The translations under genes were made by a program, and so were the position numbers. From the NCBI GenBank assembly GCA_965226745.1, contig CBDDDS010000003.1, forward strand, positions 230,520-294,519: 64,000 nt of DNA, given 5' to 3'. Shown here in pieces: positions 3,821-61,744 of the stretch (within the stretch, counting starts at the first letter, position 1; each line of letters starts with the position of its first letter). The notes beneath the pieces were generated by a model. That model did no database searches. It worked only from the letters and a program-made list of their open reading frames with translations, and had not been told where the DNA came from. This stretch comes from Dehalococcoidia bacterium. Its GTDB lineage: Bacteria; Chloroflexota; Dehalococcoidia; Lucifugimonadales; SAR202-VII-2.

Positions 3821-4156
3821 ATGTACTGCGTTTTCTGCGAGATCATAGCCGGGAAACTGCCGGCCAGGTTCTTCCACGGGGAAGAGGACTTGGTGGTCAT
3901 AGCGAACCAGTTGACCTGGGCGCCCGTGATGCTTCTGGTGATTCCCCGGGAACACATGACGCAAGAGCAGCTGTGGTCTTCCGCCCTCTTGCAACGGATG
4001 GGGCAGGTGGCGGTGCAGATGGGTCAGCGGCACTGTCCCGGCGGCTTCAGACTGCTCTCCAACTTCGGCCGGGACGCCATGCAGAGTCAGCCTCACGGGC
4101 ACGTCCATGTCCTGGGCGGCATGTTCCTGGGTCCGTACGTGCGGCGGGAGTCCTAG
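3821..4156 (+). CDS. HIT family protein
   Basis: MYCVFCEIIAGK N-terminus and histidine triad HGHVHVLGG. Confidence 0.8.
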   Translation: MYCVFCEIIAGKLPARFFHGEEDLVVIANQLTWAPVMLLVIPREHMTQEQLWSSALLQRMGQVAVQMGQRHCPGGFRLLSNFGRDAMQSQPHGHVHVLGGMFLGPYVRRES

Positions 4157-4237
4157 CCGCCTCGCTATGTCAGGCGCTGACGCCGGTGGTATGATGGGCC
4201 GCGCCTCATGCTCCGCTCTTGAGTGTTGGGCCGGACC

Positions 4238-10773: not shown

Positions 10774-10992
10774 GATTTACCTCCGGAGCGCGCGCCTCTC
10801 GAATCGCCGCCTTATGGTACGTCCTATGGGCCGCCATTGTCATCTCGACGCGGGCACAGGGGCGGGGGATGGGGTGGATTCCCGCCTGCGCGGGAATGGC
10901 TGCTGGCTGCGATGGCGTTCGGCGGTTGCTTTTGGATGCCCCTTCCCTGGAAGCTAGGGAATCTCTGAACAAGCCCCCCACCCACGGCGGAA

Positions 10993-11213
10993 CCTCAGTC
11001 CCTGCCCTTGTACGCGGGGAAGGCTAGGAAGCGTCGGGACGCCCCCCAACCTCCTCCCCCAAGCAGGGTGCAGGGGGCTGCGCCCCCGCCGGGGGTAACA
11101 GGGGTGTCCCCCTGTACCCAAAAACGTCGGAGGGCGGAGCGGGCGGGATGGCGGCGCAGGCCAAGCCAAACCCTCGGCTGAAGTAGGGCGCAGGCCACAA
11201 CAAGACCCTCCCC
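10993..11213 (-). repeat. GC-rich mosaic hairpin repeat (R family), upstream flank of element copy A
   Basis: Reverse complement of the unit seen at 42521-42745, 47408-48070, 50003-50350 and 61508-61660. Contains the GTACAGGGGGA-n-TCCCCCTGTAC type hairpin. Confidence 0.8.
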
Positions 11214-11337: not shown

Positions 11338-11705
11338 TTGCAAAATCCGAACACTTGTGCTATAATATCCCCATGAAGTGGGCCGGGGGCCCGCTTCTCC
11401 TTCTCGGAGCCTGCCGCATAACGTATGTACTGGGGGCTAACCACAGAGAATCCCCCTGTGGCAGGGGCGCTGAGGGAACAACCCTAGGGGCAAGACCGTC
11501 CGAGGAAGGCTGGGACCGGAGCGAATGCCATTGTAAGGCACAGGCTCTTTGGAGCCATCCCGCTCCGTAACGAATCGTAACAACTAGGTAACGGTTCGTA
11601 ACGGCTCCGTAACGACTCGTAACAGCTTTGTAACGGCCTGTAACGCCTTTGTAATGGCTCCGTGCCTGCAAACCCCGAAATCCGGCTGACAAACGTTACA
11701 AAGCC
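11338..11705 (+). ncRNA. copy A of dispersed promoter + structured core + phased-repeat element (candidate novel ncRNA)
   Basis: -35 TTGCAA (11338-11343), 17-nt spacer, extended -10 TGTGCTATAAT (TATAAT 11361-11366). Conserved core to ~11566, repeats 11567-11661, and 3' module CGTGCCTGCAAACCCCGAAATCCGGCTG. Confidence 0.6.
11567..11661 (+). repeat. phased short repeats, GTAAC core, 9 units
   Basis: GTAAC (last unit GTAAT) starts are spaced 10,11,10,11,10,11,10,11 nt, giving a 21-nt super-period. Confidence 0.9.
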
Positions 11706-15998: not shown

Positions 15999-18074
15999 GT
16001 GATACAACTATCGGGGAGGTCAAGATATCGAATGATAGCGAGGAATGATTTGAAGGTAGAGTTCTCAAGGCTGACCTCCGATGATCTAGGCGCCGTCGAC
16101 GACTTGATGAAACGCAATAGCCGAACTCTTGGCTTTCTGCCGACTGAGGCGCTCATCGACTACCTTCACAAGAGACGCGTCTTGGGTGCCAAGATTGGAG
16201 GTGATAGGCTCGTTGGGTACCTGCTCTATGCGCCTATTCAGAGTCGCTTTCGGATTGTTCAACTCTGCGTCTCGCAAGAATTCAGAGGCTACGGCATCGC
16301 GAGCCACCTCCTTGAAGAACTCAAGGACGTTGCTACGACGCAGTCCGCCATAACTCTCAGCTGCCGCCGGGACTTCCCTGCACATTACATGTGGCCGAAA
16401 TTAGGCTTTGTTTCAATTGGGGAAAGGCCGGGCCGTTCCGTAGCTGGGCACCTCTTAACACTTTGGCACCTCCCCCTGAACCCAGCCAATCAAATGGACC
16501 TGGGACTGTTCAAGGCACAAACATCAGATGAGACCATCGATGTCATCATTGATGCCCAAGTATTCTTTGAGCTGTCTAAGCCAGACAGTGATGAGTCGGA
16601 AGGGTCCAAGGCTCTGCTATCTGACTTTTTGGTAGATTCCCTCAACCTTTGGATCACCGATGAATTGCTCAACGAAATCCATCGGAGCGACGACCCCGAG
16701 CAACGACGGGCAGGGCGATCCCGAATACAGCAATTCCCACAGGTGACATATTCTCCACGCTTGGTTGATGACTTCTATAGCCGCTTGATGACTACCCTGC
16801 CCGACCGCACACCCAGCCAAGTCTCCGACATTAAGCATCTAGCGAAGGCTGCCTCTTCCGATGTGAATGTCTTTGTCACCAGAGATCAGTCTCTACTGAG
16901 AAAGGCACAGGAGATTGCAGACTTAACGAATCGCCGGGTGCTGTCCCCAACAGAGTTGATAATTGAGCTCCACGAACTCCTCGAAGGACAGTCCTATGGA
17001 CCTCACCGCGTTTCTGGTCTTCGTCTCGGATGGTATCGCTTTACCGTCCGCGACCTCGCATCTCTTCCGATCGACTCTTTCCTTAACGAAGGAGAAGGGC
17101 AGAGGCAGTTGAGGAGGGAACTGGATCGCTACCTAGTTCGTCCCAACAACTACCAGTGTGAGCTACTCAAAGCGGAGGACAACGATGTCGCAATCCGAAT
17201 CATCCCCACCACTCCTAAGGCGACAGTCACTGTACCCTTGGCCAGAGTAGCGCGCACCGCCGAGCGATCGCTGTTCGGACGCTTCCTGATCGCAGACACT
17301 ATTGCAAAGGCGGTAGACAACAACCAGGACATGGTTGAGTTCGAGCTGTCCGGGCTTACTTCCTCGTTGATACCGGACCTCATGGAGATGGGATTCACAA
17401 GATGCAGGTATACCTTTGCGAAGTTCTGTTTCTCACGCTGCCTCGATCGGGAAGATGCTCTCCAGACGATTGCGACTCTATCACCTGAATTGGAGGCTGC
17501 ATATGACGATGTGTCAGACCTCGAACTTGAACGCTACTGCGCACCTGTGAGTTTAGATGCAGACCAGAACTATTTTCTGGTTCCGATTCGACCAGGTTAT
17601 GCTATCAGCTTGATCGACAGAGCGCTGTCGTCTAGTGACATGTTCGGTGGAGACCCTTCTGTCTTGTTGCGGTGGGAAAACGTCTATTACCGAAAGGCTG
17701 CTACGTCGAGGAAGATTCTGAAGGCCCCTGGGCGCATTCTCTGGTACGTGAGTCGCAGTCAGAAACAGATCGTAGCAGTATCCCATCTTGACGAAGTGGT
17801 GGTCGATACCGCCAAAGTACTTTTCAGGAGGTTCAAGAAGTTCGGGATACTGGGATGGGAGGAACTCTACGGAATGTGCGCCGGTGATACTTCGATGGAA
17901 TTGATGGCGCTGCAGTTCTCCCATACGTTTGTCTTTAGAAGGAGGATTCCATTGAAGGCGGTGCGGATGGTCTATGATGAGGAAGGGAGTGGCTTGACTG
18001 TGCGACTCCCGACACACATGCCGGCGAGCAGATTTCAGAAGCTGTTTAAGCTAGGCTTTCCAGATTGCTCATGA
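15999..18074 (+). CDS. multidomain protein: GNAT acetyltransferase - PIN nuclease - second (degenerate) GNAT-like - C-terminal ASCH/PUA-like domain
   Basis: 691 aa in an AT-richer island. GNAT motif A QLCVSQEFRGYGIASHLLEEL...LGFVSIG. PIN acidic residues (DVIIDAQVFFEL, ITDELLNEI, SDVNVFVTRDQSLL). The C-terminal region (ILWYVSRSQKQIVAVSHLDEVVV...) parallels the downstream ASCH protein. Start is uncertain (GTG 15999 or ATG 16032). Confidence 0.6.
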   Translation: MIQLSGRSRYRMIARNDLKVEFSRLTSDDLGAVDDLMKRNSRTLGFLPTEALIDYLHKRRVLGAKIGGDRLVGYLLYAPIQSRFRIVQLCVSQEFRGYGIASHLLEELKDVATTQSAITLSCRRDFPAHYMWPKLGFVSIGERPGRSVAGHLLTLWHLPLNPANQMDLGLFKAQTSDETIDVIIDAQVFFELSKPDSDESEGSKALLSDFLVDSLNLWITDELLNEIHRSDDPEQRRAGRSRIQQFPQVTYSPRLVDDFYSRLMTTLPDRTPSQVSDIKHLAKAASSDVNVFVTRDQSLLRKAQEIADLTNRRVLSPTELIIELHELLEGQSYGPHRVSGLRLGWYRFTVRDLASLPIDSFLNEGEGQRQLRRELDRYLVRPNNYQCELLKAEDNDVAIRIIPTTPKATVTVPLARVARTAERSLFGRFLIADTIAKAVDNNQDMVEFELSGLTSSLIPDLMEMGFTRCRYTFAKFCFSRCLDREDALQTIATLSPELEAAYDDVSDLELERYCAPVSLDADQNYFLVPIRPGYAISLIDRALSSSDMFGGDPSVLLRWENVYYRKAATSRKILKAPGRILWYVSRSQKQIVAVSHLDEVVVDTAKVLFRRFKKFGILGWEELYGMCAGDTSMELMALQFSHTFVFRRRIPLKAVRMVYDEEGSGLTVRLPTHMPASRFQKLFKLGFPDCS

Positions 18075-18553
18075 CCACAGCGTTGCGATCCTTGATCATC
18101 TCGCTGAAGCCGTGTTATGCCGACTTGTTATTTGAGGGTTTGAAGAAGGTTGAACTTCGGCGACGGATTGCTTCCCAGATAAATGACCGAGACGTGTTCA
18201 TTTATGTTTCCAGCCCAGTTAGGGAATTGCGTGGAGGCTTCCGTGTCGGTCAGGTATGGGAAGGATCACCCGACGCCGTGTGGAACAGTGTGGCTGAACT
18301 GGCGACTGTCGATAGACGGGTATTTGACGCCTATTTCCAAGGTCGGACCGTCGCTTATGCAATAGAAATCACGAATGTGTGGGAATACCAAAGTCCGGTG
18401 GGTCTCAGTTGGTTGAGAGATCGGTTCGAGAATTTTGTTGTTCCGCAGTCGTGGCGATATGCCAAACCTGAAGAGCGAGAGGCCTTCCAGAAGATGAGGG
18501 GACGAGCAAATGAAGAGGCCCAAAATGAGATCATATTGGTTGAAACTACCTAA
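18065..18553 (+). CDS. ASCH domain protein
   Basis: Overlaps the upstream gene by 10 nt. LIISLKPCYADLLFEGLKKVELRRR, DVFIYVSSPVRELRGGFRV, and PQSWRY are typical of ASCH/PUA-like folds. Confidence 0.65.
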   Translation: MLMTTALRSLIISLKPCYADLLFEGLKKVELRRRIASQINDRDVFIYVSSPVRELRGGFRVGQVWEGSPDAVWNSVAELATVDRRVFDAYFQGRTVAYAIEITNVWEYQSPVGLSWLRDRFENFVVPQSWRYAKPEEREAFQKMRGRANEEAQNEIILVETT

Positions 18554-18651
18554 CAGGTGATAAGACGAGTAAGCTGTGCTCACCGCCGGCGTTTCCTGAC
18601 ACCGAGCGAAGGAATGGATTCCCGGCACCGCAATCCGGTTGAAAGGCAGAT

Positions 18652-20127
18652 ATGACAGATAATTCCGCGGACTCCAACAAAGTGCACAAGGAATCGGACA
18701 CGGACACGCTTCCGTCCGTGATCGATAAGCTTGGCGAAATCGCGAGAGCCGCGAGTGGCGGTTCTTTTGTATTTCGAGATGAGCCGAAATACTACCCGGA
18801 AATTTCATCTAGCCTTTACCGAGAGTATAGAACGATGCTCATACCTCTTGGTGATGATGGGTTCGATATCCGTCATGTGGAAGGCGAGATTCTTACCGCC
18901 GCCGCCCGCTACGTTGACGACCTTACACCAGAGGACCTACTAAGCCAGCTCCAACACTACGGTTATCCTACAAACCTGGTTGACTTCACTGCTGACTATC
19001 TCAATGCGCTCTTCTTCGCCTGCCCCAGTGAGCCGAAAAACGATGGTCGCGTAATACTCCTTAACACTGACACCAACCTACTCTTGCGCATGCGGGCCCC
19101 TGCGAACCGTATCAAGGCACAGAAGAGCGTTTTCGTTAGCCCTCCTACAGGGGTCGTCAATCCGGGCCATATTATCTGCTTCCCGAGCGCTCTAAAACTT
19201 CCCATGCTTGAATATCTCAGTTCTTATCACGACATTTCAGCGCAGACGATCCACGACGATATTCAAGGCTTTATCAAGAACGCCGAAATTCACCGAAGTG
19301 CGTACGCGGAGTTTCATATGGGCGGGCTTCACTTGAGCCAAGGACATTTTGAAGAAGCTCTTAGACATTACAACCGTTCAATTGAGTTGAACAGTTACCA
19401 ACAAGCTTCATTCGCAAACCGAGCAGTAACGTTCATAAAAATGAAGAAATACGGTGATGGCATTCAAGATTTCTCTCGAGTGATCACCCTGGATCGCCAT
19501 GATGCGCGGGCGTACCAGGAAAGGGAACGGGCTTACTGGGACAGCGGACAACCGGAGTTGGGGGAGCAGGACTATAGCGAGGCGATACGGCTTGACGAAC
19601 GGCTGGAGGGTGCCTACATTGGGCGTTCTGCCTGTCGTGTAAATCGTAGGGACATCGACGGGGCGATGCAAGACTTAAACTTCGTAATCGACGTGAATCC
19701 CAAGAGCAGCGCAGCATACAAGGGAAGGGGTGTCGCCTTTATGACGGTTGGCAATTACCGATCGGCCCTGGAGGACATAAGTAGTGCGATAGAGATTGAC
19801 CCAACCGATCCGTTCGCCTACATGGGCCGAGCTGTAGTCCACTTTAATATGGGACAATCCCAGGATGCCGTAGATGACTTCGGCAGGCACCTCAGTTTAG
19901 GTGGTGACGACCCGGCCGAGGCCTACTTTCTCCGGGGTATTGCTCTGGTCACCTTGGGAAAGTTTGAGGAAGCGCGTGCAGACCTAGAGACCGCCTTGGG
20001 GCAGGATCCATTTGTTGCTAAACGGGTGATCGCGAAAGTAAGCGACCTCGTCGGCGGGAGCGACAGCCTTATATTGCAGGATGAGGTGCCTGCCGACATT
20101 CTAGAGATGCTAAAACCTGCAGAATAG
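18652..20127 (+). CDS. FRG domain - TPR repeat protein
   Basis: N-terminal FRG-domain hallmarks (FVFRDEPKYY..SSLYRE, LQHYGYPTNLVDFT, RIKAQKSVFV), followed by about seven TPR repeats (aa ~220-470). Confidence 0.75.
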   Translation: MTDNSADSNKVHKESDTDTLPSVIDKLGEIARAASGGSFVFRDEPKYYPEISSSLYREYRTMLIPLGDDGFDIRHVEGEILTAAARYVDDLTPEDLLSQLQHYGYPTNLVDFTADYLNALFFACPSEPKNDGRVILLNTDTNLLLRMRAPANRIKAQKSVFVSPPTGVVNPGHIICFPSALKLPMLEYLSSYHDISAQTIHDDIQGFIKNAEIHRSAYAEFHMGGLHLSQGHFEEALRHYNRSIELNSYQQASFANRAVTFIKMKKYGDGIQDFSRVITLDRHDARAYQERERAYWDSGQPELGEQDYSEAIRLDERLEGAYIGRSACRVNRRDIDGAMQDLNFVIDVNPKSSAAYKGRGVAFMTVGNYRSALEDISSAIEIDPTDPFAYMGRAVVHFNMGQSQDAVDDFGRHLSLGGDDPAEAYFLRGIALVTLGKFEEARADLETALGQDPFVAKRVIAKVSDLVGGSDSLILQDEVPADILEMLKPAE

Positions 20128-20176
20128 CGGCCCAGGGCAAAACAAGACCATCCCCTCCCGCCCCACCACCGCCCCC

Positions 20177-20567
20177 TTGCAAAATAAGAACGAGTGTGCT
20201 ATAATGTCCCCATGAAGTGGGCAGCCGGCCCGCTTCTCTTTCTCGGAGCCTGCCGCATACGTTTAGCACTGTGGGCTAACCATAGAGAATCCCCCTGTGG
20301 CAGGGGCGCTGAGGGAACAACCCAAGGGGCAAGACCCTCCGAGGAAGGTTGGGACCGGAGCCAATGCCGTTATAAGGCACAGGCTGCTTGGAGCTATCCC
20401 GCTCCATTACGGTTCCGTTACGGTTCGTTACGGGGCCATTACGGTTCCTTTACAGATCCCTTACAGCTTCATTACTGCTAGTTACGCCTTGTTACGCCCT
20501 CTGTTACGGCTTCGTGCCTGCAACCCCCGAAATCCGGCTGGCCAGTGTAACAACAAACAATCAAAGG
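20177..20567 (+). ncRNA. copy B of dispersed promoter + core + phased-repeat element
   Basis: -35 TTGCAA 20177-20182, 17-nt spacer, TGTGCTATAAT (TATAAT 20200-20205). Core to 20405, repeats 20406-20513, and 3' modules CGTGCCTGCAACCCCCGAAATCCGGCTG and ACAAACAATCAAAGG. Confidence 0.6.
20406..20513 (+). repeat. phased short repeats, (G/A/T/C)TTAC core, 10 units
   Basis: TTAC starts are spaced 11,10,11,11,11,11,10,10,12 nt. The core is the reverse complement of the GTAAC core of copies A, C and E. Confidence 0.9.
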
Positions 20568-20705
20568 CCTAACCTGCCCCCGGCAAATCCCCCCATCCCT
20601 TCCCTCCACTACGGGCGGAGGTTACGATGGGAGTCTCCCGCCTGGCCTTGGACCCAACGTCCCTGGGAAAGAGAGCTGGCGGGGAGCGGGACAGCGGGAA
20701 GGAGC

Positions 20706-21743
20706 TTGAACAACCCCATTACGCTGAGCTTCGTTGACCAGTCGCCGATACGACGGGGCGGCGCCGCTGCCGATGCGCTTCGGGAGACGGTTGAGTTGGC
20801 CCGCCTGGCTGAGGAGGCGGGGTACGCCCGCTACTGGGTCGCCGAGCACCACAACACGCCTGCGTTCGCGGGAACGAGCCCGGAAATCCTCATTGGGCAG
20901 ATTGCCGCGCACACGGACCACATCCGGGTTGGCAGCGGCGGCGTGATGCTGACGCACTACTCGGCGCTGAAGGTGGCCGAGCAGTTCAGCGTCCTGAACA
21001 GCTTCTATCCGGGCCGCATAGACCTTGGCATTGGCCGCGCCCCCGGCAGCGACCGCCGCACGGCCCTGGCCCTGGCGGATCCCCGCCCGTTGGTGGACGT
21101 GGAGGGGTTTCCGGGGCAGGTGCTGGACCTGCTGGCCTATCTGCAGGGCGGTACCTACGATGGCAACCCGTTCGAGGGAGTCAAGGCGCATCCGGGGCCT
21201 GTGTCCGAGTCTCCGCCGGAGATCTGGCTTCTGGGCTCCAGCGACTACAGCGCGAGGCTTGCCGCGATGATGGGGCTCCCGTTCGCCTTTGCCGAATTCT
21301 TTGGCGTGACCGGGGCGACGGGGCCCACGGTGGCCAAGCTCTACCACGACCTCTTCAAGCCGTCGAGGTTCCTGTCTGAGCCGAGGATCAACGTGGCGCT
21401 GCAAGTCGTGTGCGCCCCAACGACGGAGGAGGCGCAGTTCATCGCCTCGAGCCGGCAGATGATGCGGGCCGACCGCTATTTGCAGCTTGGCGTTGGCCCG
21501 GGCATGATCCCACCCGAGGAAGCGTCGGTGTTCCCGTTAACGGAGGAGCAGCGGGCGTTCCTGGCGCGGTTCAGAAACCGGGAGATAGACGGAGACCCGG
21601 AGACGGTGCGGGAGGGTATCCTTCAGGCCGCCGAGGACTTTGGCTCCACGGACATTGGCATCGTAACCAACTGCTACCGGTTCGAGGACCGGGCGCGCTC
21701 GCTGCAACTGGTGGCGGAGGCGATGGGGGTGGGGAGGGGGTAG
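20706..21743 (+). CDS. LLM class flavin-dependent oxidoreductase
   Basis: TTG start after GGAAGGAG. ARYWVAEHHNTPAFAG and GRIDLGIGRAPG motifs. The upstream part of the 20388 ORF runs through element B and was rejected. Confidence 0.8.
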   Translation: MNNPITLSFVDQSPIRRGGAAADALRETVELARLAEEAGYARYWVAEHHNTPAFAGTSPEILIGQIAAHTDHIRVGSGGVMLTHYSALKVAEQFSVLNSFYPGRIDLGIGRAPGSDRRTALALADPRPLVDVEGFPGQVLDLLAYLQGGTYDGNPFEGVKAHPGPVSESPPEIWLLGSSDYSARLAAMMGLPFAFAEFFGVTGATGPTVAKLYHDLFKPSRFLSEPRINVALQVVCAPTTEEAQFIASSRQMMRADRYLQLGVGPGMIPPEEASVFPLTEEQRAFLARFRNREIDGDPETVREGILQAAEDFGSTDIGIVTNCYRFEDRARSLQLVAEAMGVGRG

Positions 21744-40432: not shown

Positions 40433-41719
40433 TTACAGCCACACGCCGATTTCGGCCCGGTGGTTGAGTTCCGAGAGCGCCCAGACCAGGGCGTCGAGGC
40501 GGTCCGGGCTGGCGCCGCTTTCGGGGATCCAGGTGCAGAGCTGGTCCTCGAGGTCTTCCAGGCCGGGGCCGACGTGGAAGACCTTCCCCTGCTCGTAGAG
40601 TGCGGCGATGGGCTCGGCCCGGACGAGCTTGCCTCGGCTGGCGCGGACGGCCTTGTAGGGAATGGATGCGTCCACCGTGCGGAGGACGGACTCCACGAGC
40701 TCGCCGCCGTTGTTGACCTCGCCGATGATGCGGTCGGCGGCGAACTCCCGGTGCGCCCGCACGGCCCGCCGCGCCCACCCGTCGGGCGACAGCCTGCACG
40801 AGCGGTCGGCGAGGACGTAGAAGCTGCCGTCGACGCCGCGGCCGGCAACGACGATGCCGGTCTCGTCGGCGCTGTCGTTGTAGGAGACGGCGGGGTCGAT
40901 GGCGACGACGACGCGGAGGAGGTCCGGGGCGTCGGGGATGGACTGGAAGACCTTGCGTTGCCAGAGGGCGCCTTCGACGTCGTCAAGAAGCTCGGCGTGG
41001 ACCTCCTGGCGGCCCAGGCGGGTCCCCTCGTAGCGGGCGGCGATCCGTTGGAGGAAGGCCTCGGAGAGGTTGGCCCGGTTCTCGTAGGTGGCGCCGCGAG
41101 TGACCGCCGTTGACGGCGAGGCGAGGAGCTCGCGGATGAGGCGAACGGGCCGGGGGGTGGTGGTGACGACGGTGCGCGGGGGTTGGCCCAAGCGGAGGCC
41201 GAACTGGAGCATGTCCCAGGCTTCCGGGTAGCGCCAGGCGGCCATCTCGTCGCACCAGGCCGCATGGAACTGGGGCCCGCGCAGGCGGTCGGGCTCGTCG
41301 GCGGAGAAGGTGGTGGCGACGACGCCGTTGGGCCAGGTGAGGCGGCGCTTGGACGGCTCATAGGCGGGGCGCTCGTCGGGGTGGCCCACGGAGAGGATGC
41401 CGCTGTGGCCCTCGACCATGACGTCGCGAGCGTCGGCGGCGGTAGGGGCGACGAGGGCAATGCGGCGGGCGTTGTTGGAAGCGGCCTGGGCGCGGACCCA
41501 TTCGGCGCCGGTGCGGGTCTTGCCCCAGCCTCGGCCGGCCAGGACGAGCCAGACAAGCCAGTCGCCGTCGGGGGGAAGCTGGGAGGGGCGGGCCCAGGTG
41601 GGCCAGTCCCACTCCAGGGACTCAGCCGCTCCCGGCGCCAACTCCCGTATCACGCTCTTCCTCAAGGCGGGCTGCGATGCTATCGATTGCGCGCTGGAGT
41701 TCGGCTCTTGCATCCTCAT
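40433..41719 (-). CDS. phage/GTA-type terminase large subunit (apparently intact, orphan)
   Basis: 428 aa. Walker A LAGRGWGKTRTGAEWV. WCDEMAAW. Nuclease region VVAIDPAVS...DETGIVVAG. The start may be an internal GTG, because the ORF overlaps the upstream gene by 98 nt. Confidence 0.85.
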   Translation of the reverse strand: MRMQEPNSSAQSIASQPALRKSVIRELAPGAAESLEWDWPTWARPSQLPPDGDWLVWLVLAGRGWGKTRTGAEWVRAQAASNNARRIALVAPTAADARDVMVEGHSGILSVGHPDERPAYEPSKRRLTWPNGVVATTFSADEPDRLRGPQFHAAWCDEMAAWRYPEAWDMLQFGLRLGQPPRTVVTTTPRPVRLIRELLASPSTAVTRGATYENRANLSEAFLQRIAARYEGTRLGRQEVHAELLDDVEGALWQRKVFQSIPDAPDLLRVVVAIDPAVSYNDSADETGIVVAGRGVDGSFYVLADRSCRLSPDGWARRAVRAHREFAADRIIGEVNNGGELVESVLRTVDASIPYKAVRASRGKLVRAEPIAALYEQGKVFHVGPGLEDLEDQLCTWIPESGASPDRLDALVWALSELNHRAEIGVWL

Positions 41720-42083
41720 CCCTCATCCGTGCTGACTTTTCTGCGGGGTCGCCGGGTTTGGAGTGCCGGACGACGGCGCGCTCGACGATCCACTCGGCGA
41801 CGCTGGTGTCTTTCTCCGCGAGCGCGTCGCTTATCACCTCGACGGCCTCCCCAGCGAGCTGGAGCAGTGCGCCTTCAACCTCCTGCCGATGCGAGCCCGG
41901 CGACGCCAGCGCCGGGTCCGGTCCAGCCTGGGGGTCCGTTCCGTCGCTGCGCTTTGCGTGTTCTGCGCGGTGGGCGGCCACCCGGCAGCGCCCGGAACAG
42001 TAGATAGCGTCTCTCCGCAGAGCAGGGGGGAAGCGGGAGGCGCACCAAGGGCAATAGCGGAGAGAGCGCAAGCTGTAGTTCAT
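41622..42083 (-). CDS. zinc-ribbon protein, possible small terminase/DNA-binding partner
   Basis: 153 aa. N-terminal CPWC...YCSGRCRVAAHR zinc ribbon and an acidic helical C-terminus. Immediately upstream of TerL. Confidence 0.45.
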   Translation of the reverse strand: MNYSLRSLRYCPWCASRFPPALRRDAIYCSGRCRVAAHRAEHAKRSDGTDPQAGPDPALASPGSHRQEVEGALLQLAGEAVEVISDALAEKDTSVAEWIVERAVVRHSKPGDPAEKSARMRDEDARAELQRAIDSIAARLEEERDTGVGAGSG

Positions 42084-42127: not shown

Positions 42128-42464
42128 GGCTTTGTAACGTTTGTCAGCCGGATTCGGGGTTTGCAGGCACGGAGCCATTACAAAGGCATTACGAGGCATT
42201 ACAAGCCGTTACACAGTCGTTACGGAGCCGTTACAGAGCGGGATGGCTCCAAGGAGCCTGTGCCTTACAACGGCATTCGCTCCGGTTCCAGCCTTCCTCG
42301 GAGGGTTGTGGGCCTGGGGATGTTCCCCAGACCCTCCTGCCACAGGGGGATTCTCTGTGGTTAGCCCCCAGTGCATACGCTATGCGGCAGGCTCCTAAGG
42401 AAGAGAAGCGGGCCTAGGACCTACTTCATGGGGGTACTATAGCACAACTGTTCTTATTTTGCAA
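42128..42464 (-). ncRNA. copy C of dispersed promoter + core + phased-repeat element
   Basis: On the minus strand: -35 TTGCAA (42459-42464), 17-nt spacer, TGTGCTATAGT (-10 at 42436-42441), conserved core, repeats 42171-42234, and 3' module CGTGCCTGCAAACCCCGAATCCGGCTG. It ends 44 nt before the ATG at 42083. Confidence 0.6.
42171..42234 (-). repeat. phased short repeats, GTAAC/GTAAT core, 6 units
   Basis: The minus strand reads GTAACGGCTCC GTAACGACTGT GTAACGGCTT GTAATGCCTC GTAATGCCTTT GTAATGGCTCC. Confidence 0.9.
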
Positions 42465-42520
42465 TAGGGGGGTGGCGGGGGCCCCGGACTCCGGCGTCCG
42501 CCCGCCGATGGGGACGGATG

Positions 42521-42745
42521 GTTTTGTCTTGGCCTGCGCCCTCCATCAGCGAAGGGTCTGGCTTGGCGTGCGCCGCTATCCCGCCCGCACCACCCTCCGA
42601 CGTTTTTGGGTACAGGGGGACTCCCCCTGTACCCCCGGCGGGGGCTGCGCCCCCTGCACCCTGCTTGGGGGGAGGGAGAGGGCTTGCGTTGGCGCGTCCG
42701 GGCGCTTCCTAACCTGCCGCTGGGTACGGGGGTAGGGAGAGAGGG
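42521..42745 (+). repeat. R-family mosaic hairpin repeat, promoter-proximal flank of copy C
   Basis: TTTTGTCTTGGCCTGCGCC...GTACAGGGGGACTCCCCCTGTAC...GGGGGCTGCGCCCCC...CTTCCTAACCTGCC. Confidence 0.8.
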
Positions 42746-42912
42746 CTTACGGTGGGTGTGGGGGCTGCATTCAGCGGTCGACTCGTATGCGGAGCACGCC
42801 ATGCTCGTTGGGGAGGGTGGCTTTGGTCCGGTCGGCCATCGGCTCCCAGGGCGACCAATCCAGAGGGAATTACATACCTAATTACACACGGGGCTGAGCC
42901 CTGGATTGAAGA

Positions 42913-43638: not shown

Positions 43639-44040
43639 CTAGACGTTAGTCCTGATGCGGACTAGGTTACGGAGTATCTCTAGGTCTTCAGTAGCTGGTG
43701 GCCCCAGTCTTTGGAGGCGCGCCTCCAATGACTGATAGTAGCCACTCAAGGACCTAAGAAGGTCTAGTATTGCATCCTCGAACGAGGTTCCCACTCCGTA
43801 TTCCTGAACTGTCAAATAGGTGATAGCCACCACTTCTTCCCATGAGGTGTAAATCTCAACTATAAGGTCACGGATCAATTCCCAAGAGTCGTCCCAAGAG
43901 TGTTGGGCAGGAACGACATACAGGCCCTGACTCGAAGTGGTATTCCCCGCGTGATTAGTCCCAACATGCAGAGATGTAAGCACCATAGGTTGAAGTGTAG
44001 ATGTATCGACCCTCAACTCGTGAGTCCCTGAAGTCGTCAC
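43639..44040 (-). CDS. small protein with HicB/UPF0150-like C-terminal half
   Basis: 133 aa. VAITYLTVQEYGVGTSFEDAILDLLRSL resembles the HicB N-domain pattern. It begins by overlapping the upstream gene (ATGA). Confidence 0.4.
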   Translation of the reverse strand: MTTSGTHELRVDTSTLQPMVLTSLHVGTNHAGNTTSSQGLYVVPAQHSWDDSWELIRDLIVEIYTSWEEVVAITYLTVQEYGVGTSFEDAILDLLRSLSGYYQSLEARLQRLGPPATEDLEILRNLVRIRTNV

Positions 44041-44351
44041 CCTAAACTCCCATTCGATCCCCAGAACGCATTCCAGTCTTCAGGGGATATTCCTAGTTGA
44101 TTCAAGACTTGCTGGGGGACTTCATATCGTACCCCTAGCTCCGTCTCCTGTCGGATTATCTGTCGTCTGATTATAAAAGTCAAAGCCTTCAGGTGTTCGT
44201 TGCTCATTCTGATAGTACCGAGTACGGATGGTTGCGGAGTAGATGCTGGCTCGGGGTGAGCCTCTCGCAATTGGAAGCCCAAGTTAGCGCCCCAAGGGCC
44301 AGTCGTGACTAAGAAAGCGTCGGAGTAAATATCGAATGGTTCCATAATCAT
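44037..44351 (-). CDS. DUF3467-like small protein
   Basis: DIYSDAFLVTTGPWGANLGFQL...IRMSNEHLKALTFIIRRQI..ETELG resembles DUF3467. Start is uncertain (44351, 44345 or 44378). Confidence 0.4.
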   Translation of the reverse strand: MIMEPFDIYSDAFLVTTGPWGANLGFQLREAHPEPASTPQPSVLGTIRMSNEHLKALTFIIRRQIIRQETELGVRYEVPQQVLNQLGISPEDWNAFWGSNGSLG

Positions 44352-44832
44352 CCCCACGTGGCCTATGCTGCCTTGCAAGCGATCTCCGAATCACCGTTCG
44401 GGAGGTTGAGGGCCCTAGTCCGAGCCGGGTCGCCCGGAGACCGCTGTTGTGTCTGTCTGACGATAACTCGCCCTTGCTACCCAGCCGGTAGCTCTACAAT
44501 CACATTCTAACATCCCAAATCATTCACCATCGCTTGCCATACTGTCAACCCCTGCCTTGACAAGCTCCTCTCACCTAGTGAGACCACCTACCCGCTATAG
44601 CAGATGGTTCTATCAATCCGAGTCACAAGCACTGGATAAGGGGAAGCCTGCCCCCTTGTTGGCTCGCGCTGGTAGACGGGTCTGCTGTAGCAAGTGCCCT
44701 GCTATCCTGGGCCGGAAGAGGGTTCCCTTGTACATGCTGCTTGCCAAGTTCACCTTGGCTGCTGGGGGGTAGCATGGGCGGTGGCGGTGGGGGATGGTGG
44801 CGGTGGAGGCTGGCGGGTTGTTTAGGGCGACC

Positions 44833-49567: not shown

Positions 49568-49947
49568 GGATGGGCAGGGTTCCCCCGGCTTCGGTCTCTT
49601 CCTTTGATTGTATGTGTTCCTGCTTTTTCTTCTCCCCCGGCGCCCCGTAGTCGTGGAGCCGTCGCGTAGCCGTCGTGGAGCTGTCGTGGAGCTGTCGCGT
49701 AGCTGTCGCGGATGCGTCGCGTAGCCGGATGGCTCCAAAGAGCTTGCCTTACAACGGCATTCGCTCCGGTCCCAGCCTTCCTCGGACGGTCTTGCCCCTA
49801 GGGATGTTCCCTCAGCGCCCCTGCCACAGGGGGATTCTCTATGGTTAGCCCCCAGTACATACGTTATGCGGCAGGCTCCAAGGAAGAGAAGCGGGCCGGG
49901 GGCCCACTTCATGGGGAGACTATAGCACAAAGGTTCGCATAATGCAA
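49568..49947 (-). ncRNA. copy D of dispersed promoter + core + phased-repeat element
   Basis: On the minus strand: -35 TTGCAT (49942-49947), 17-nt spacer, TGTGCTATAGT (-10 at 49919-49924), conserved core, repeats 49651-49727, and a 3' module shared with copy E (…ACATACAATCAAAGG…GGGGGAACCCTGCCCATCCC). Confidence 0.6.
49651..49727 (-). repeat. phased short repeats, exact 11-nt period x7, GTCG(T/C)G core (plus-strand reading)
   Basis: GTCGTGGAGCC GTCGCGTAGCC GTCGTGGAGCT GTCGTGGAGCT GTCGCGTAGCT GTCGCGGATGC GTCGCGTAGCC. Confidence 0.95.
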
Positions 49948-52920: not shown

Positions 52921-53760
52921 TTAGAGTCCGACCGGCGTATTCCTAGCCACCTGTTGTGCGAACTCCTCGGGCGTCCGGTTGCCCAGTGCGCTGTGGGGCC
53001 GGACAGCATTGTAGTCGTCCCGCCAGCGCTCGACGATGTTCCGGGCCGCAGGAAGACTCACGAACCAGTGCTCGTTGAGGCACTCGTCGCGAAGCCGCCC
53101 GTTGAAGCTCTCGATGTACGCATTCTGCACGGGCTTGCCCGGATCGATGAAGTGCAGATGCACCCCATGTGCATACGCCCAAGCGTCCAGAATCCTCCCG
53201 GCGAATTCAGGGCCGTTGTCTACGGTGATCAGCTCCGGCAGGCCACGGTCGATGGCCAGCCTGTCCAACACCCTTGTCACGCGGAGGCCGGGCAACGACG
53301 TGTCCACCTCCATGGGCAGGCTCTCCCGAGTGAAGTCGTCAATCACCGTCAGCACTCGTATCCGCCGGCCACTGGCGAGCGCATCGGACACGAAGTCCAT
53401 CGACCACCGCTGGTTCGGGCGCTCGGGCGCCATCGTGGGGACGCGAGCGATGCCCGCCATCCGCTTGCGCTTCCGACGCCGGACGGACAGCCCCTCCTCC
53501 CGATAGAGCCGGTAGACCCGCTTGTGGTTCACGCCGAACCCCTCCCGGCGCAACAACACCCACAACCGGCGATACCCGAAGCGCCGCCGCTCCGCGGCGA
53601 GCGAGCGCAGTCGCTTGAGGAGTTCGGGTGCGTCGCTGCCCACCCGCCTATAGCGGGCCACCGATCGGTGGATACCCATCAGCCTGCAGGCGCGACGCTC
53701 GCTGAAGCCCCACCGCTCCTGGACACGGTGCATGGTCTCCCGTCGCGTTGCAGGCGTCAT
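52921..53760 (-). CDS. IS3-family transposase OrfB (DDE integrase core)
   Basis: 279 aa, with [13 protein letters not shown] and [14 protein letters not shown] (the DDE triad context). Confidence 0.9.
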
Positions 53761-57214: not shown

Positions 57215-58198
57215 GTGGATGTGGCGGCCACGATCGTTGCTATTATCAACTTGAAGGGCGGGGTGGGAAAGAGCACCCTGGCAATGATTTTGGGAGAGTA
57301 TCTCAGCCTACGTATTGGTGAGCGAGTATTGCTCATTGACATGGATGCGCAAGGCAACCTGAGCTATTGCATGGTTCCGGAACATCAGATACAAACTCAA
57401 GAGAACCAGGGCAGAACCACCTACCATCTTTTGAGCGCAGCACTACAGGGCGAAAATCCTGATCCTAAAGACTATCTGACACGACCGCCGCTTGTCATCT
57501 CAAATGTAGCTAGGCACGGGGCTGTCAATCATCCTGGAATCCTCGACATCATTGTCTCTACACCCAGCGTCGCCCAACTCGACGCGGAGCTTATTGATCT
57601 CTGGGCAAGGGGAAGGCCTTTTCCCACATCTCTAAGGGAGAGCCTCGCGATGGCACTGGGCTCCATCGGAGAGGAGTATGACCGCGTGATAATAGACTGT
57701 CCGCCGGGGCTCTCCGTGTTTTCATCTACCGCTTTAATGGCCTGCGACTACTTTGTGGCGCCCGTTATCCCTGAACCCTTGTCCCTCCAAGGCGTCAACC
57801 TCGTAAAGACTCGCGTGACCGAATTGCATCAGAAGGGCTCTGCGGCCAAGTTTGGGGGAGTGATACTTAATATCGTCAAACATTACCGGAAGACACACCA
57901 AACAACTGCCGTTACTCTGTACGGGGCCCAGCGCGGCATGTATGAACCTTTCGATTATTGGCTGCCGGATAGTGAAAGACTCCGCAGGATAGGAGAGTAT
58001 GACCCAGACCTCGAAGGTTCTTGGGCGGGAGGCATGGGACAAAAATTCAGCTCTCTGCATCAGAAGTATGGTCTTTCGTATCGCTTGAATAATCCCAGAG
58101 GGGGACCACTGGACTTAAGTGCAACAGAAGGTAAACAGTACAGTCTTGAGGACCGGATTGGCAGTCTCGTGGAGGAATTCCGGCAGAGATGCGCCTAG
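57215..58198 (+). CDS. ParA/MinD-superfamily ATPase (AT-richer gene)
   Basis: Deviant Walker A NLKGGVGKSTLA, LLIDMDAQGN, and VIIDCPPG. Long C-terminal extension. Confidence 0.85.
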   Translation: MDVAATIVAIINLKGGVGKSTLAMILGEYLSLRIGERVLLIDMDAQGNLSYCMVPEHQIQTQENQGRTTYHLLSAALQGENPDPKDYLTRPPLVISNVARHGAVNHPGILDIIVSTPSVAQLDAELIDLWARGRPFPTSLRESLAMALGSIGEEYDRVIIDCPPGLSVFSSTALMACDYFVAPVIPEPLSLQGVNLVKTRVTELHQKGSAAKFGGVILNIVKHYRKTHQTTAVTLYGAQRGMYEPFDYWLPDSERLRRIGEYDPDLEGSWAGGMGQKFSSLHQKYGLSYRLNNPRGGPLDLSATEGKQYSLEDRIGSLVEEFRQRCA

Positions 58199-58207
58199 GA
58201 GGGAATC

Positions 58208-58837
58208 TTGAGGGCTAAGACGCCCCCTAAAGGAGATGCCCAGAGGCATCTCATGGGCCTTCTTCAGAAGAAGTACCGAGCGGACCCGCAAGGTTTCCGC
58301 CGGTACTTGCCCGAGGTGGCCCAGGCCCTGGATAGCATTTCGCCTACGAAATGGCCTTTCAAGAGCCCCTATGGCCTTACTGAGCGTGAGCGCATCGCAA
58401 GGAAAGAGTCCCTGGAAGCAGTGTTGAAGCTTGTGGAGAGCGGCAAGGCGACTCCGCAGGAGGCCGTTCGCGGTTTGGAGCACGGTGCCGTTCTAACCGA
58501 AGACGACGACCTGCCGGAGGACGTGGGCCATGAAACGCTGCTGCGCCTTTTGCGGCTGGCCGTCGGCAAGGCGCCAGGGTCCTTCAGGAAGAAGGCAACG
58601 GTCGCAATGGAAGGAGAGGGGAATCGGGATGCCGTGAAGGCCGTCGCACTGATTCGGGGGGTGGCTTTGAACCTGACCTGGGATATGCGGTTGGTTTCGA
58701 TCTCAATTTCCCCCCATAAGGTTGAGGAGAGGCGGAAGATGCTCGGCCTTGTGGGGATGGCTCAGGACCCCCAGCCTGACGTATCCAGGCGTCACGACGA
58801 CTATTTGACGGAAGTGAGCCCGCATGGCGCTGCCTGA
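58208..58837 (+). CDS. hypothetical protein. The C-terminal tail resembles VapB-type antitoxin ends.
   Basis: 209 aa, starting 10 nt after the ParA-like gene and overlapping the PIN gene by 14 nt. The C-terminal ...DVSRRHDDYLTE is reminiscent of antitoxin tails. Confidence 0.45.
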   Translation: MRAKTPPKGDAQRHLMGLLQKKYRADPQGFRRYLPEVAQALDSISPTKWPFKSPYGLTERERIARKESLEAVLKLVESGKATPQEAVRGLEHGAVLTEDDDLPEDVGHETLLRLLRLAVGKAPGSFRKKATVAMEGEGNRDAVKAVALIRGVALNLTWDMRLVSISISPHKVEERRKMLGLVGMAQDPQPDVSRRHDDYLTEVSPHGAA

Positions 58838-59234
58838 ATCCGTTCTCGTTGACACGTCCGCCTTCTATGCGCTCATCTCCGCCACCGATGAGTTTCATGG
58901 CAGGGCGCGAGCCGCCTATGAACGCCTCTTGGATAGAGATCAGGGGCTGTGGAGCACTTCGTACGTCATCGTTGAAACGATTGCCTTGGTTCACCGCCGC
59001 CTCGGCTTCGAAACGCTGAAGGCTCTTCTTGAGTTCGTTGAGCGTCATGTTGAGGTGTTCTGGATAGACAGCTTTATTCATGACGCTGCGCTCAAGGAGT
59101 TAGTGGCAAGTGGAGGAAGCGGGTTGAACTTCGTGGATTGGACGACGGCCCTTGCCGCAGCCCGGCTAGGTGCTCCTGTCTTCACCTTTGATGAGGGGTT
59201 CCGTCGGCAAGGCGCGTCCGTTGTGCCCAGATAG
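58824..59234 (+). CDS. PIN domain (VapC-like) ribonuclease
   Basis: 136 aa, with VLVDTSAFYAL, SYVIVET, FVDWT and FTFDEGF acidic motifs. Confidence 0.8.
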   Translation: MALPESVLVDTSAFYALISATDEFHGRARAAYERLLDRDQGLWSTSYVIVETIALVHRRLGFETLKALLEFVERHVEVFWIDSFIHDAALKELVASGGSGLNFVDWTTALAAARLGAPVFTFDEGFRRQGASVVPR

Positions 59235-61036: not shown

Positions 61037-61482
61037 GGGATGGGCAGGGTTCCCCCGGCTTCAGCCTCATTCTTTGATTGTTTGTGATTCTTTGATTGTT
61101 TGTGCGCCTGCTTTTTCTTCTCCCGTAGGCGTGGAGCCGTTACAAAGGCGTTACAAGCTGTTACAAGGGCGTTACGTTACGAGCCGTTACGAGCCGTTAC
61201 GAGTCGTTACACAGTCGTTACGGAGCCGTTACTGATCTTACGAGCCGTTACGGAGTTGGGCGGCTCCTAAAGAGCCTGTGCCTTACAGCGGCATTCTCTC
61301 CGTTCCCGGCCTTCCTCGGAGGGTCTTGCCCCTCGGGTTGTTCCCTCAGCGCCCCTGCCACAGGGGGACTCTCCATGGTTAGCCCCCAGTACATACGTTA
61401 TGCGGCAGGCTCCGAGAAAGAGAAGCGGGCCTGGGGCCCACTTCATTGGGGGTACTATAGCACACCCGTTCGTATTTTGCAA
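61037..61482 (-). ncRNA. copy E of dispersed promoter + core + phased-repeat element
   Basis: On the minus strand: -35 TTGCAA (61477-61482), 17-nt spacer, TGTGCTATAGT (-10 at 61454-61459), conserved core, repeats 61139-61251, and a 3' module shared with copy D that includes an 18-nt tandem duplication (61069-61104). Confidence 0.6.
61139..61251 (-). repeat. phased short repeats, GTAAC core (GTTAC on plus strand), 12 units
   Basis: Spacing is 9-11 nt, with one 5-nt doublet (GTTACGTTAC). Confidence 0.9.
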
Positions 61483-61507
61483 TGGGGGGGTGGCATAACC
61501 TGGACGG

Positions 61508-61660
61508 AGGGTCTTGTTGTGGCCTGCGCCGCTCCTTCAGCGGAGGGTTTGTTTTGGCCTGTGCCGCTATCCCGCCCGCTCCACCCTCCAACGTTTTTAG
61601 AAACAGGGGGACTCGCTGTACCCCCGGCGGGGGCTGCGCCCCCTGCACCTCGCTCGGCGG
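61508..61660 (+). repeat. R-family mosaic repeat, promoter-proximal flank of copy E
   Basis: GTCTTGTTGTGGCCTGCGCC...CAACGTTTTTAGAAACAGGGGGACTC...GGGGGCTGCGCCCCCTGCACC. Confidence 0.8.
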
Positions 61661-61744
61661 GACGAAAGCCCCATACTGGACAGTGCAGGCGTATTTGTCG
61701 TTGTACGATCCTCTATTGACAACGCAATTCGGTGTATTAGCGTG

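Follow-up and report, generated by a model that had tools for sequence, protein, structure and literature searches.

The region analyzed here (the window) is a stretch of 64,000 nt from a Dehalococcoidia bacterium (GCA_965226745.1, contig CBDDDS010000003.1, positions 230,520-294,519, forward strand). BLAST of one repeated element, copy A, against the window gave five copies, A to E (Table 1), of a unit of ~370 nt. The unit opens with a strong promoter of sigma-70 type, followed by a structured core (~200 nt) and a short hairpin; then come an array of short tandem units, an apex box of 27 nt and a single inverted anti-unit. Read in element sense, the arrays of copies A, C and E consist of GTAAY pentamers, that of copy B of NTTAC and that of copy D of RCGAC. 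To judge from the sequence comparisons that follow, the tail of copy B is a variable tandem-repeat cassette in its NTTAC form, carried in an IS5/MITE-borne unit (IS, insertion sequence; MITE, miniature inverted-repeat transposable element).

A preliminary description of this DNA had claimed that the tail repeats of copy B (GTTAC) have the opposite polarity to those of copies A, C and E (GTAAC), while the core orientation stays constant. Both observations were real. TTAC occurs ten times in copy B between 20407 and 20507 (counted in the sequence), with spacings of 11, 10, 11, 11, 11, 11, 10, 10 and 12 nt in order, and neither GTAA nor GTAAC is found in 20406-20513; shuffles of the same 116 nt gave a mean of 0.6 and a maximum of 4 TTAC, and Tandem Repeats Finder recovered the array as well. 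The copy A array holds 9 GTAA at 10-11 nt spacing, GTAAY stands in the same register in A, C and E, and the orientation of promoter and core relative to the tail is identical in all window copies. Written out, the copy B array reads CC ATTAC GGTTCC GTTAC GGTTC GTTAC GGGGCC ATTAC GGTTCC TTTAC AGATCC CTTAC AGCTTC ATTAC TGCTA GTTAC GCCTT GTTAC GCCCTCT GTTAC GGCTTC, with the pentamers GTTAC (five), ATTAC (three), TTTAC (one) and CTTAC (one), so that the unit (CC)GTTAC(GG) given in the preliminary description stands as a consensus but not as a literal unit.

To place copy B among its relatives, a 20-nt core pattern was searched in the GTDB collection, where it matched almost exclusively one genome, the metagenome-assembled genome (MAG) Dehalococcoidia OZ253584.1 (3.09 Mb), which contains at least 57 blocks with at least 66 copies of the unit. 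The window genome and OZ253584.1 are sister genomes with ~95-96% identity in syntenic genes. L-numbers (L001, L008 and so on) denote the fetched loci holding copies, mostly from this MAG, L063 being from another genome. A census of 71 copies, including those of other genomes, gave at least five tail classes: GTAAY (29 copies, 283 units; the class of A, C and E), NTTAC (10 copies, 96 units; the class of B), RCGAC (11 copies, 92 units; the class of D), GCGAT (one copy with 14 units, L063) and a mixed class, in which all units differ within the array and the array is conserved between copies; GTGAC/GTCAC units come in addition in what we call class-6 leaders. Arrays range from 4 to 14 units of 10-11 nt, the period stays within 9-12 nt in all copies, and no copy is without an array. 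The spacings in the GTAAY class were 10 nt in 117 cases and 11 nt in 125 (mean ~10.5), and RCGAC arrays have a strict 11-bp period. The random drift, with neither phasing nor polarity classes, that the preliminary description had contemplated for genome-wide copies was not seen; the classes are discrete and phased at 10/11 nt. Polarity as a two-state property is a narrower matter: the A-type and B-type classes do exist, but they represent one axis of a wider diversification of the motif.

The two polarity classes are cleanly separated, with GTTAC in 0 of 283 A-class units and GTAAC in 1 of 96 B-class units. Compared as position-weight profiles, the A and B pentamers correlate at 0.98 as reverse complements and at 0.58 directly, and the degenerate end of the pentamer is mirrored too (GTAA-Y versus R-TTAC). 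The spacers behave in the opposite manner, correlating at 0.83 directly and at 0.19 as reverse complements. With the pentamers masked, direct alignment was better than reverse-complement alignment in 290 of 290 A x B pairs, and T/(A+T) in the spacers was 0.78 in B and 0.75 in A, where inversion would give ~0.25. Because only the pentamer is reverse-complemented while the spacer scaffold is unchanged, no inversion of DNA took place, and an invertible segment or inversion of the tail was ruled out; the earlier wording that the tail repeats are flipped therefore applies to the pentamer and not to the whole repeat. Indeed, the unit CCGTNACGG is a quasi-palindrome, from which B differs in the central base and the degenerate end, so a change of the central base alone is enough for the flip. 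A diagnostic change in the core, TGTAAGG>TATAAGG, was present in 9 of 10 B copies and in 0 of 29 A copies, which indicates a single origin of the B class.

When arrays of equal length were compared within one class, polymorphic columns numbered 12/288 in the invariant 4-mer (GTAA, TTAC or CGAC) and 140/556 elsewhere (Fisher p = 3e-16), that is, the 4-mer was ~6-fold less polymorphic than the spacers within each class. Since turnover or gene conversion alone would homogenise the spacers alike, the 4-mer is under purifying selection within classes, though it differs between them. The spacer (GGYUCC) was also considered as the true binding motif and ruled out, spacers being far less conserved than the 4-mers.

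Whole arrays also differ at orthologous positions. The ortholog of copy B in OZ253584.1 (L032:885) has flanks ~96-97% identical to those of copy B, the 5' flank ending with the pre-array hairpin and the 3' flank running from CTTCGTGCC into a luciferase-like monooxygenase gene. Between these flanks lie ten NTTAC units in the window and ten GCGAC units in OZ253584.1, with different spacers, and the GCGAC array is of a type present in other OZ253584.1 copies. Different arrays between near-identical flanks show that the array was replaced in one piece, with homology arms provided by the conserved flanks; arrays thus move between copies as cassettes. At the terminase locus described below, the close relatives L188 and L063 have in common the unusual spacers GGATGY/GGCTA(C), and their pentamers are GTAAC and GCGAT, respectively, all differences being transitions. 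Copy E and its OZ253584.1 counterpart L028 differ by unit indels.

Table 1. Features of the window that belong to the element or to its discussion (TIR, terminal inverted repeat).
Feature	Position	Strand	Remarks
Empty target site ..GAGTCCTAG/CCGCC..	4150-4160	.	single CTAG; filled in OZ253584.1
IS5-type TIR GGAATCTCTGAACAAGC	10958-10974	+	CTAG just before; 380 nt upstream of copy A
Copy A, GTAAY class	11338-11705	+	promoter 11338-11366, array 11566-11661, apex 11662-11688, anti-unit 11689-11705
Copy B, NTTAC class	20177-20567	+	BLAST with copy A
Copy B promoter	20177-20205	+	TTGCAA, 17-nt spacer, TATAAT, extended -10 TG
Copy B structured core, ~180 nt	20208-20389	+	5' hairpin, then U-rich run, then nested helices; alignments
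Copy B pre-array hairpin GGAGCTATCCCGCTCC	20390-20405	+	seen in the sequence; 3' arm is array-spacer sequence
Copy B NTTAC tail cassette	20406-20513	+	ten units, 10-12 nt spacing
Copy B apex / 3' box GTGCCTGCAACCCCCGAAATCCGGCTG	20514-20540	+	conserved among copies A, B and C
Copy B anti-unit GCCAGTGTAACAAC	20541-20554	+	single GTAAC, complement of B-type units
Copy B ACAAACAATCAAAGG and GC hairpin	20553-20582	.	minus-strand terminator-like site 20582-20562; motif recurs 3' of most copies
Orphan large terminase gene terL, Terminase_6N/6C	40433-41719	-	domain search; overlaps Zn-ribbon gene by 98 nt
Zn-ribbon protein, 153 aa, terS position	41622-42083	-	no family match; gene order and domain searches
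Copy C, GTAAY class, 6 units	42128-42464	-	array 42171-42236; leader of Zn-ribbon gene and terL
Copy D, RCGAC class, period 11	49645-49947	-	fifth copy, third motif; BLAST and repeat finding
Copy E, GTAAC class, 11 units	61123-61482	-	array 61123-61253

The remaining parts of the unit are strongly conserved. Every copy has the promoter (TTGCAA, 17 nt, TATAAT or TATAGT, extended -10 TG), with hexamers that are invariant or >95% conserved among the 63 full-length copies, and copy B scores 10/12 matches with the TG. The pre-array hairpin has the general form GGAGCC-loop-GGCTCC, and in the alignment its stem is retained in other subfamilies while the loops differ. The apex box has two types, GTGCCTGCAAACCCCGAAATCCGGCTG or CCACGCCTACGG...AGAAGAAAA, and is often followed by ACAATCAAAG and a GC-rich hairpin, which is terminator-like when read on the opposite strand. 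Downstream of copy E, at 61069-61104, the ACAATCAAAG motif forms an exact 18-bp tandem duplication (ATTCTTTGATTGTTTGTG twice), and a similar arrangement was seen in L026 and L036.

No family match was obtained in the window with Rfam 15 at gathering thresholds; at E<=5 copy A had no match and L063 a single chance microRNA match only, so a known RNA family was ruled out. Compensatory double changes occurred at 4 of 32 predicted core pairs; within the genome the core varies too little for covariation of these pairs to gain statistical support. Subfamily variants rebuild the hairpin at alignment columns 103-128, with few compensatory pairs there, and the divergent copies L063 and L188 retain the CCUGCCG/CGGCAGG helix via GCA/UGU>GUA/UAC. 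A long-range helix AGGCAC/GUGCCU closing the array was considered by eye and dropped, as subfamilies with GAGACAAGC do not keep it. The first core hairpin and its U-rich run (20214-20246 in the window, and at the same place in all copies) resemble an intrinsic terminator ~5 nt past the likely start, and the U-rich run has an alternative pairing with GAGGAAGG further downstream, which suggests a possible attenuator or switch. In L187 (9717-10000), which belongs to another genome, the core of a terS-linked copy is reduced to its first 66 nt, and the array and an inverted half-array are still present, which means that the core can be lost while the tail persists. A metagenome scan with the promoter pattern gave 120 loci, none with the core, as that pattern matches generic strong promoters, and searches of phage and plasmid collections gave no DNA match to copy B.

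The carrier of the unit could be recognized from its ends. At the site matching the empty target site of the window, OZ253584.1 has a 904-bp insertion (L025 4101-5004) with the CTAG duplicated, perfect 17-bp inverted repeats (GGAATCTCTGAACAAGC) at its ends and an A-type RNA gene inside; this filled site opposite an empty one shows that the element moved recently. TIR pairs GGAWKCTCTGAACAAGC with CTAG or TTAG bracket the copies in L001, L006, L008, L017, L025, L030 and L039. Among them L030 is a minimal MITE of 518 bp, and L039 is a full element, a 1.8-kb IS with TTAG on both sides and a transposase of 324 aa (L039 4268-5242) belonging to the IS5 family (NF033581 273 bits against a cutoff of 140, DDE_Tnp_1, DUF772). 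The RNA gene of L039 lies inside the same TIR pair, convergent with the transposase, and reads inward from the right end. Owing to the TIRs, the CTAG/TTAG target site duplications, the filled and empty sites and the one full IS with an IS5 transposase, the unit is evidently a passenger of an IS5-family IS and its MITE derivatives.

Two further arrangements were noted around the copies. RNA genes of different tail class stand in tandem in several loci, A then B in L008 (1022-2681) and L056 (1638-2750), RCGAC then B in L003, and A then class 6 in L041 and L046; such pairs are also listed for L007 and L032, and that of L008 lies within one TIR pair. A second, very abundant GC-rich hairpin repeat (..GGGTGCAGGGGGCGCAGCCCCCGCCGGGGGTACAGGGGGAGTCCCCCTGTACCCAAAAACGTCGGAGGG..) occurs at 42500-42760, 11040-11200 and 61500-61715 of the window and in many loci, upstream of many copies and inside TIR-bounded elements, with up to 89 BLAST matches overlapping in the fetched loci.

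The anti-unit lies ~30-40 nt 3' of the array, and in A and B copies its motif follows the class of the copy. In A copies with the first apex-box type it is CGTTACAAAG, the exact inverse of an A unit with the GGCTTT spacer, and has GTTAC in 19 of 19 cases; in B copies it has GTAAC in 8 of 9. Copies of the mixed class that have GTTGC units carry a GTAAC anti-unit as well. The box of copy B forms a duplex of -12.3 kcal/mol with its own array. Mean predicted duplex energies were -13.9 kcal/mol for A boxes with their own array and -8.9 with B arrays, and -13.2 kcal/mol for B boxes with their own array and -11.0 with A arrays. The variant units GUAAU (in A) and GUUGC (in mixed copies) can still pair with the anti-unit through G-U, and the B-specific core change deletes the sole GUAA of the core that is able to pair with B units.

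On this basis we tentatively prefer an RNA-level pairing code with closure in cis to phased sites on double-stranded DNA (dsDNA), a proposal for the function of the array to which we give somewhat less than an even chance. The array would act in the transcript, with the pentamer as its pairing address. The units of one array would be kept mutually non-complementary, leaving the tail open, and one of them would pair with the copy's own downstream anti-unit and close a long hairpin around the apex box. The change of the array from GTAAY to NTTAC would then have been accompanied by the change of the anti-unit from GTTAC to GTAAC and by loss of the only core GUAA. Such a switch of pentamer and anti-unit would make A-type and B-type tails complementary in trans, and the self-contained complementarity of unit and anti-unit would let several classes coexist in one cell. 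What favours RNA, at the same tentative level, is the conserved promoter directly upstream, the unit/anti-unit complementarity, the lack of self-complementarity within arrays, the wobble-compatible variants and the inverted half-array of the class-6 leaders.

Several points weigh against this proposal. Transcription is predicted from the promoter only, and the core varies too little for strong covariation. Neither the RCGAC class (9 copies) nor the GCGAT array of L063 has an anti-unit complementary to it (duplexes of ~-5 kcal/mol, those of RCGAC boxes with their own array), so pairing in cis is not universal. The A-to-B switch probably happened once in evolution, in which case the compensatory changes count as one or two events, and template switching that corrects a quasi-palindrome could have produced the unit/anti-unit complementarity mechanically. 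A mean period of ~10.5 bp is what dsDNA predicts, and an RNA model has no need of it. As for the carrier, no TIR with <=3 mismatches was found around copy B (20100-20900), where homology to other copies spans ~20124 to ~20640; copy B is apparently a derived or fragmentary copy, or one placed by recombination. Duplex predictions on long sequences (RNAduplex/duplexfold), made between the complete RNA and the 5' region of the transposase and between the array and the core of the same RNA, were uninformative, the observed value being -122 and that of shuffles -126 +/- 6.

The alternative of phased dsDNA sites, in which an oligomeric DNA-binding protein would place one subunit on each pentamer, with one site per helical turn, is best considered at the terminase locus of copy C. 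There the order PrpD - RNA unit - Zn-ribbon gene - terL is syntenic in at least four genomes, between which TerL is 90-92% identical and the Zn-ribbon protein ~60% (e.g. window versus L063). TerL shares 50-57% identity with its phage counterparts, terL is not followed by genes for a portal or capsid in the locus, and in several genomes terL is lost or fragmentary. The Zn-ribbon protein had no Pfam or NCBIfam match and weak Zn-finger PHROG matches only, in hhalign comparisons it did not resemble the TerS of the closest phages with terL, and its AlphaFold2 (AF2) model was all-helical and poor (pLDDT, predicted local distance difference test, 56). Intact terL operons numbered 2 in the sampled 16% of OZ253584.1, where the small gene of many class-6 copies is reduced to a truncated 5' part. 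The class-6 leaders consist of a direct half-array, a CCCTTCGAGGG hairpin and a truly inverted half-array (spacers inverted too) that ends at the ribosome-binding site (RBS); the inverted half is predicted to pair with the direct half, and GTCGC/GTCAC units lie just upstream of the RBS.

The most concrete form of the dsDNA alternative would make the Zn-ribbon protein a small terminase that wraps a pac-like array before its own gene. On this view GTAAY and NTTAC would represent a single duplex site read in its two orientations, which predicts the mirrored degeneracy GTAA-Y versus R-TTAC, and the downstream inverted unit would be an inverted site. Spacings of only 10 or 11 bp, with the mean of the A class at about one helical turn, agree with this, as does the syntenic position of the array directly upstream of the gene in terS position, and that gene's place and its 98-nt overlap with terL are as expected of a small terminase. 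The Zn-ribbon protein evolves fast compared with TerL, and the pentamer differs between the same genomes. Small-terminase rings have a subunit number similar to the 6-14 units of these arrays. Against this stand the nearest terL phages (MW202777 and PP395641), to whose TerS the Zn-ribbon protein shows no profile similarity and in which Tandem Repeats Finder detected no such arrays. Moreover, at least five classes coexist and intact operons are few, so most arrays would be without a cognate protein, and the 4-mers are conserved regardless. The RCGAC period is 11 and not 10.5 bp, and the arrays lie ~200 nt downstream of the promoter and not around it, unlike ParR-type centromeres. Around the five window copies lie metabolic genes without relation to one another, with no RHH (ribbon-helix-helix)/ParR/omega-type or other conserved DNA-binding gene adjoining, and the sole ParA-like gene of the window (57215-58198) is ~3 kb from copy E. 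The first of the two readings offered in the preliminary description, DNA sites one helical turn apart, thus agrees with the period of 10/11 nt but finds no partner of the type it named, the nearest candidate being the Zn-ribbon protein, for which no resemblance to known TerS proteins was found; overall we regard dsDNA sites as rather unlikely.

The second of those readings held that A-type and B-type tails are mutually complementary in register and pair as sense and antisense. As the main function of the array, this would mean that A and B tails anneal into an interrupted ~100-bp duplex by which one subfamily titrates or marks the other, and that RCGAC or GTGAC tails likewise target the GTCGC/GTCAC inverted half-array near the Zn-ribbon RBS. 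The complementarity itself was borne out by cofolding, with a gain of -25 kcal/mol for A x B and -27 for B x C and B x E, compared with -4 to -8 for other pairs and -4.9 +/- 2.2 for shuffles. The 4-mer of every unit is conserved, as multivalent pairing would require, A- and B-type genes stand in tandem within one TIR pair in L008 and L056, and class-6 leaders place their GTCGC/GTCAC units just upstream of an RBS. The register, by contrast, was not borne out: permuting the order of units gave equal energies, so register-specific co-adaptation of A and B was looked for and not found. The complementarity also follows automatically from a quasi-palindrome with a changed centre, the B array was replaced by an RCGAC array at the orthologous locus with no visible consequence, and neither RCGAC nor GCGAT has a complementary free-standing class among those recorded. 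We therefore consider trans pairing as the main function quite improbable. To a more general version, in which the pentamer is an address code by which IS-borne RNAs recognise each other or the terminase-operon leader through multivalent repeat pairing (ten 8-9-bp helices, one per 10-11 nt) in a programmable inter-element sense/antisense network, made by A-type with B-type tails or by RCGAC/GTGAC tails with the inverted GTCGC/GTCAC half-array at the RBS, we likewise assign a low probability; if it were true, a cassette swap would re-address a copy.

It is also possible that the array has no motif-specific function and is a minisatellite in a MITE, with GTTAC as a chance variant of the central base, the anti-unit as a copy made by template switching, and the uniformity of each tail due to slippage, unit turnover and gene conversion. 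GTAAC>GTTAC is indeed a one-base change, unit number and content vary between genomes 95% identical (copy E versus L028, L188 versus L063), whole arrays are swapped between copies, and MITEs with internal minisatellites and promoters are known, e.g. BrickBuilt (PMC4596501). Turnover would homogenise 4-mers and spacers together, however, and cannot account for their ~6-fold difference in polymorphism; nor does it explain why every copy keeps an array of at least 4 units with a period within 9-12 nt, or why the scaffold is conserved across deep subfamilies and genomes. We thus have little expectation that the array is neutral. A coding repeat was ruled out, given the period of 10-11 nt, the gain and loss of units and a core open reading frame (ORF) that is broken by 1-nt indels between copies.

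Other features of the window were recorded beside these results. Copy B adjoins an island of low third-position GC at 15999-20127, and a second such island lies at 43639-44378 (0.53-0.59, compared with ~0.8 elsewhere). The two islands hold a GNAT-PIN-like protein of 691 aa, a 162-aa ORF, an FRG-domain/TPR protein and two small ORFs; they were probably acquired horizontally and may be defence-related. An IS3-type integrase-core transposase (rve, rve_3, HTH_21) at 52921-53760 (-) and a ParA-like ATPase with a PIN-domain gene at 57215-59234 (+) make up a further mobile or toxin-antitoxin-like cluster that has no relation to the array element.

A literature search returned nothing on this element and only analogues. 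The ParR/parC system of plasmid R1 and the heptad arrays of omega proteins use about ten short direct repeats one helical turn apart, and the orientation of omega repeats may vary. Here no RHH/ParR gene adjoins, the arrays lie downstream of a promoter in a transcribed unit on a transposon, and there are >60 arrays per chromosome in at least five motif classes. The R sites of lambda cosB and pacL/pacR of SPP1 are repeated short direct and inverted sites beside terS-terL with helical phasing, whereas in our case the small protein cannot be recognised as a TerS, arrays are absent from the nearest terL phages and most arrays are far from a terminase gene. The CsrB/RsmZ sponges and ToxI of type III toxin-antitoxin systems are noncoding RNAs transcribed from a promoter, and they act through tandem copies of a short motif. 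In the present unit the motif is not in hairpin loops, the repeat is 10-11 nt instead of 36 nt, neither a partner protein nor a toxin gene is linked to it, and the motif varies between copies of one genome.

Of the two nearest known systems, one is the BrickBuilt MITE of Porphyromonas gingivalis, a multi-copy intergenic element with small inverted-repeat ends, a 23-nt minisatellite, leader and tail flanks and an internal promoter (Klein et al. 2015, PMC4596501). Both are intergenic multi-copy MITEs with an internal tandem repeat and promoter activity in the element. BrickBuilt differs in its 23-nt unit without spacer/motif substructure, in its 19 copies, and in having no 200-nt structured core, motif classes, anti-unit or terminase link, and the element described here has a demonstrable autonomous IS5-family partner that carries the RNA gene. 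A small-RNA gene as a module of an insertion sequence is found in the other, ISPpu9 (IS110 family) of Pseudomonas putida, which carries ssr9, a gene that occurs in solo copies too and is read as a selfish passenger using the transposase (PMC12288879). ISPpu9 forms IS110 minicircles, unlike the IS5 DDE element with TIRs and target site duplications seen here, it has 8 copies compared with at least 66, and ssr9 lacks a tandem-repeat tail. The RNA family, its IS5 carrier in Dehalococcoidia and the leader shared with an orphan terL are new. So is the two-layer repeat, a fixed scaffold with a class-specific selected pentamer that is switchable to its own reverse complement and exchanged as a cassette.

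If these conclusions hold, the unit would be a new class of RNA that makes up ~1-2% of a Dehalococcoidia genome and was spread by an IS5-family transposon, and each copy would insert a strong promoter before host genes, four of the five window copies pointing at the next gene. For annotation, this means that such arrays should not be labelled as CRISPRs, iterons or invertible switches. The place of the unit as leader of an orphan, strongly conserved terL ties a transposon passenger to a phage packaging module. A 5-nt motif that is constant within arrays, block-switched between subfamilies (also to its own reverse complement) and exchanged between loci on a fixed scaffold would be a natural experiment in the evolution of repeats and would demand a partner that reads it, be it RNA or protein.

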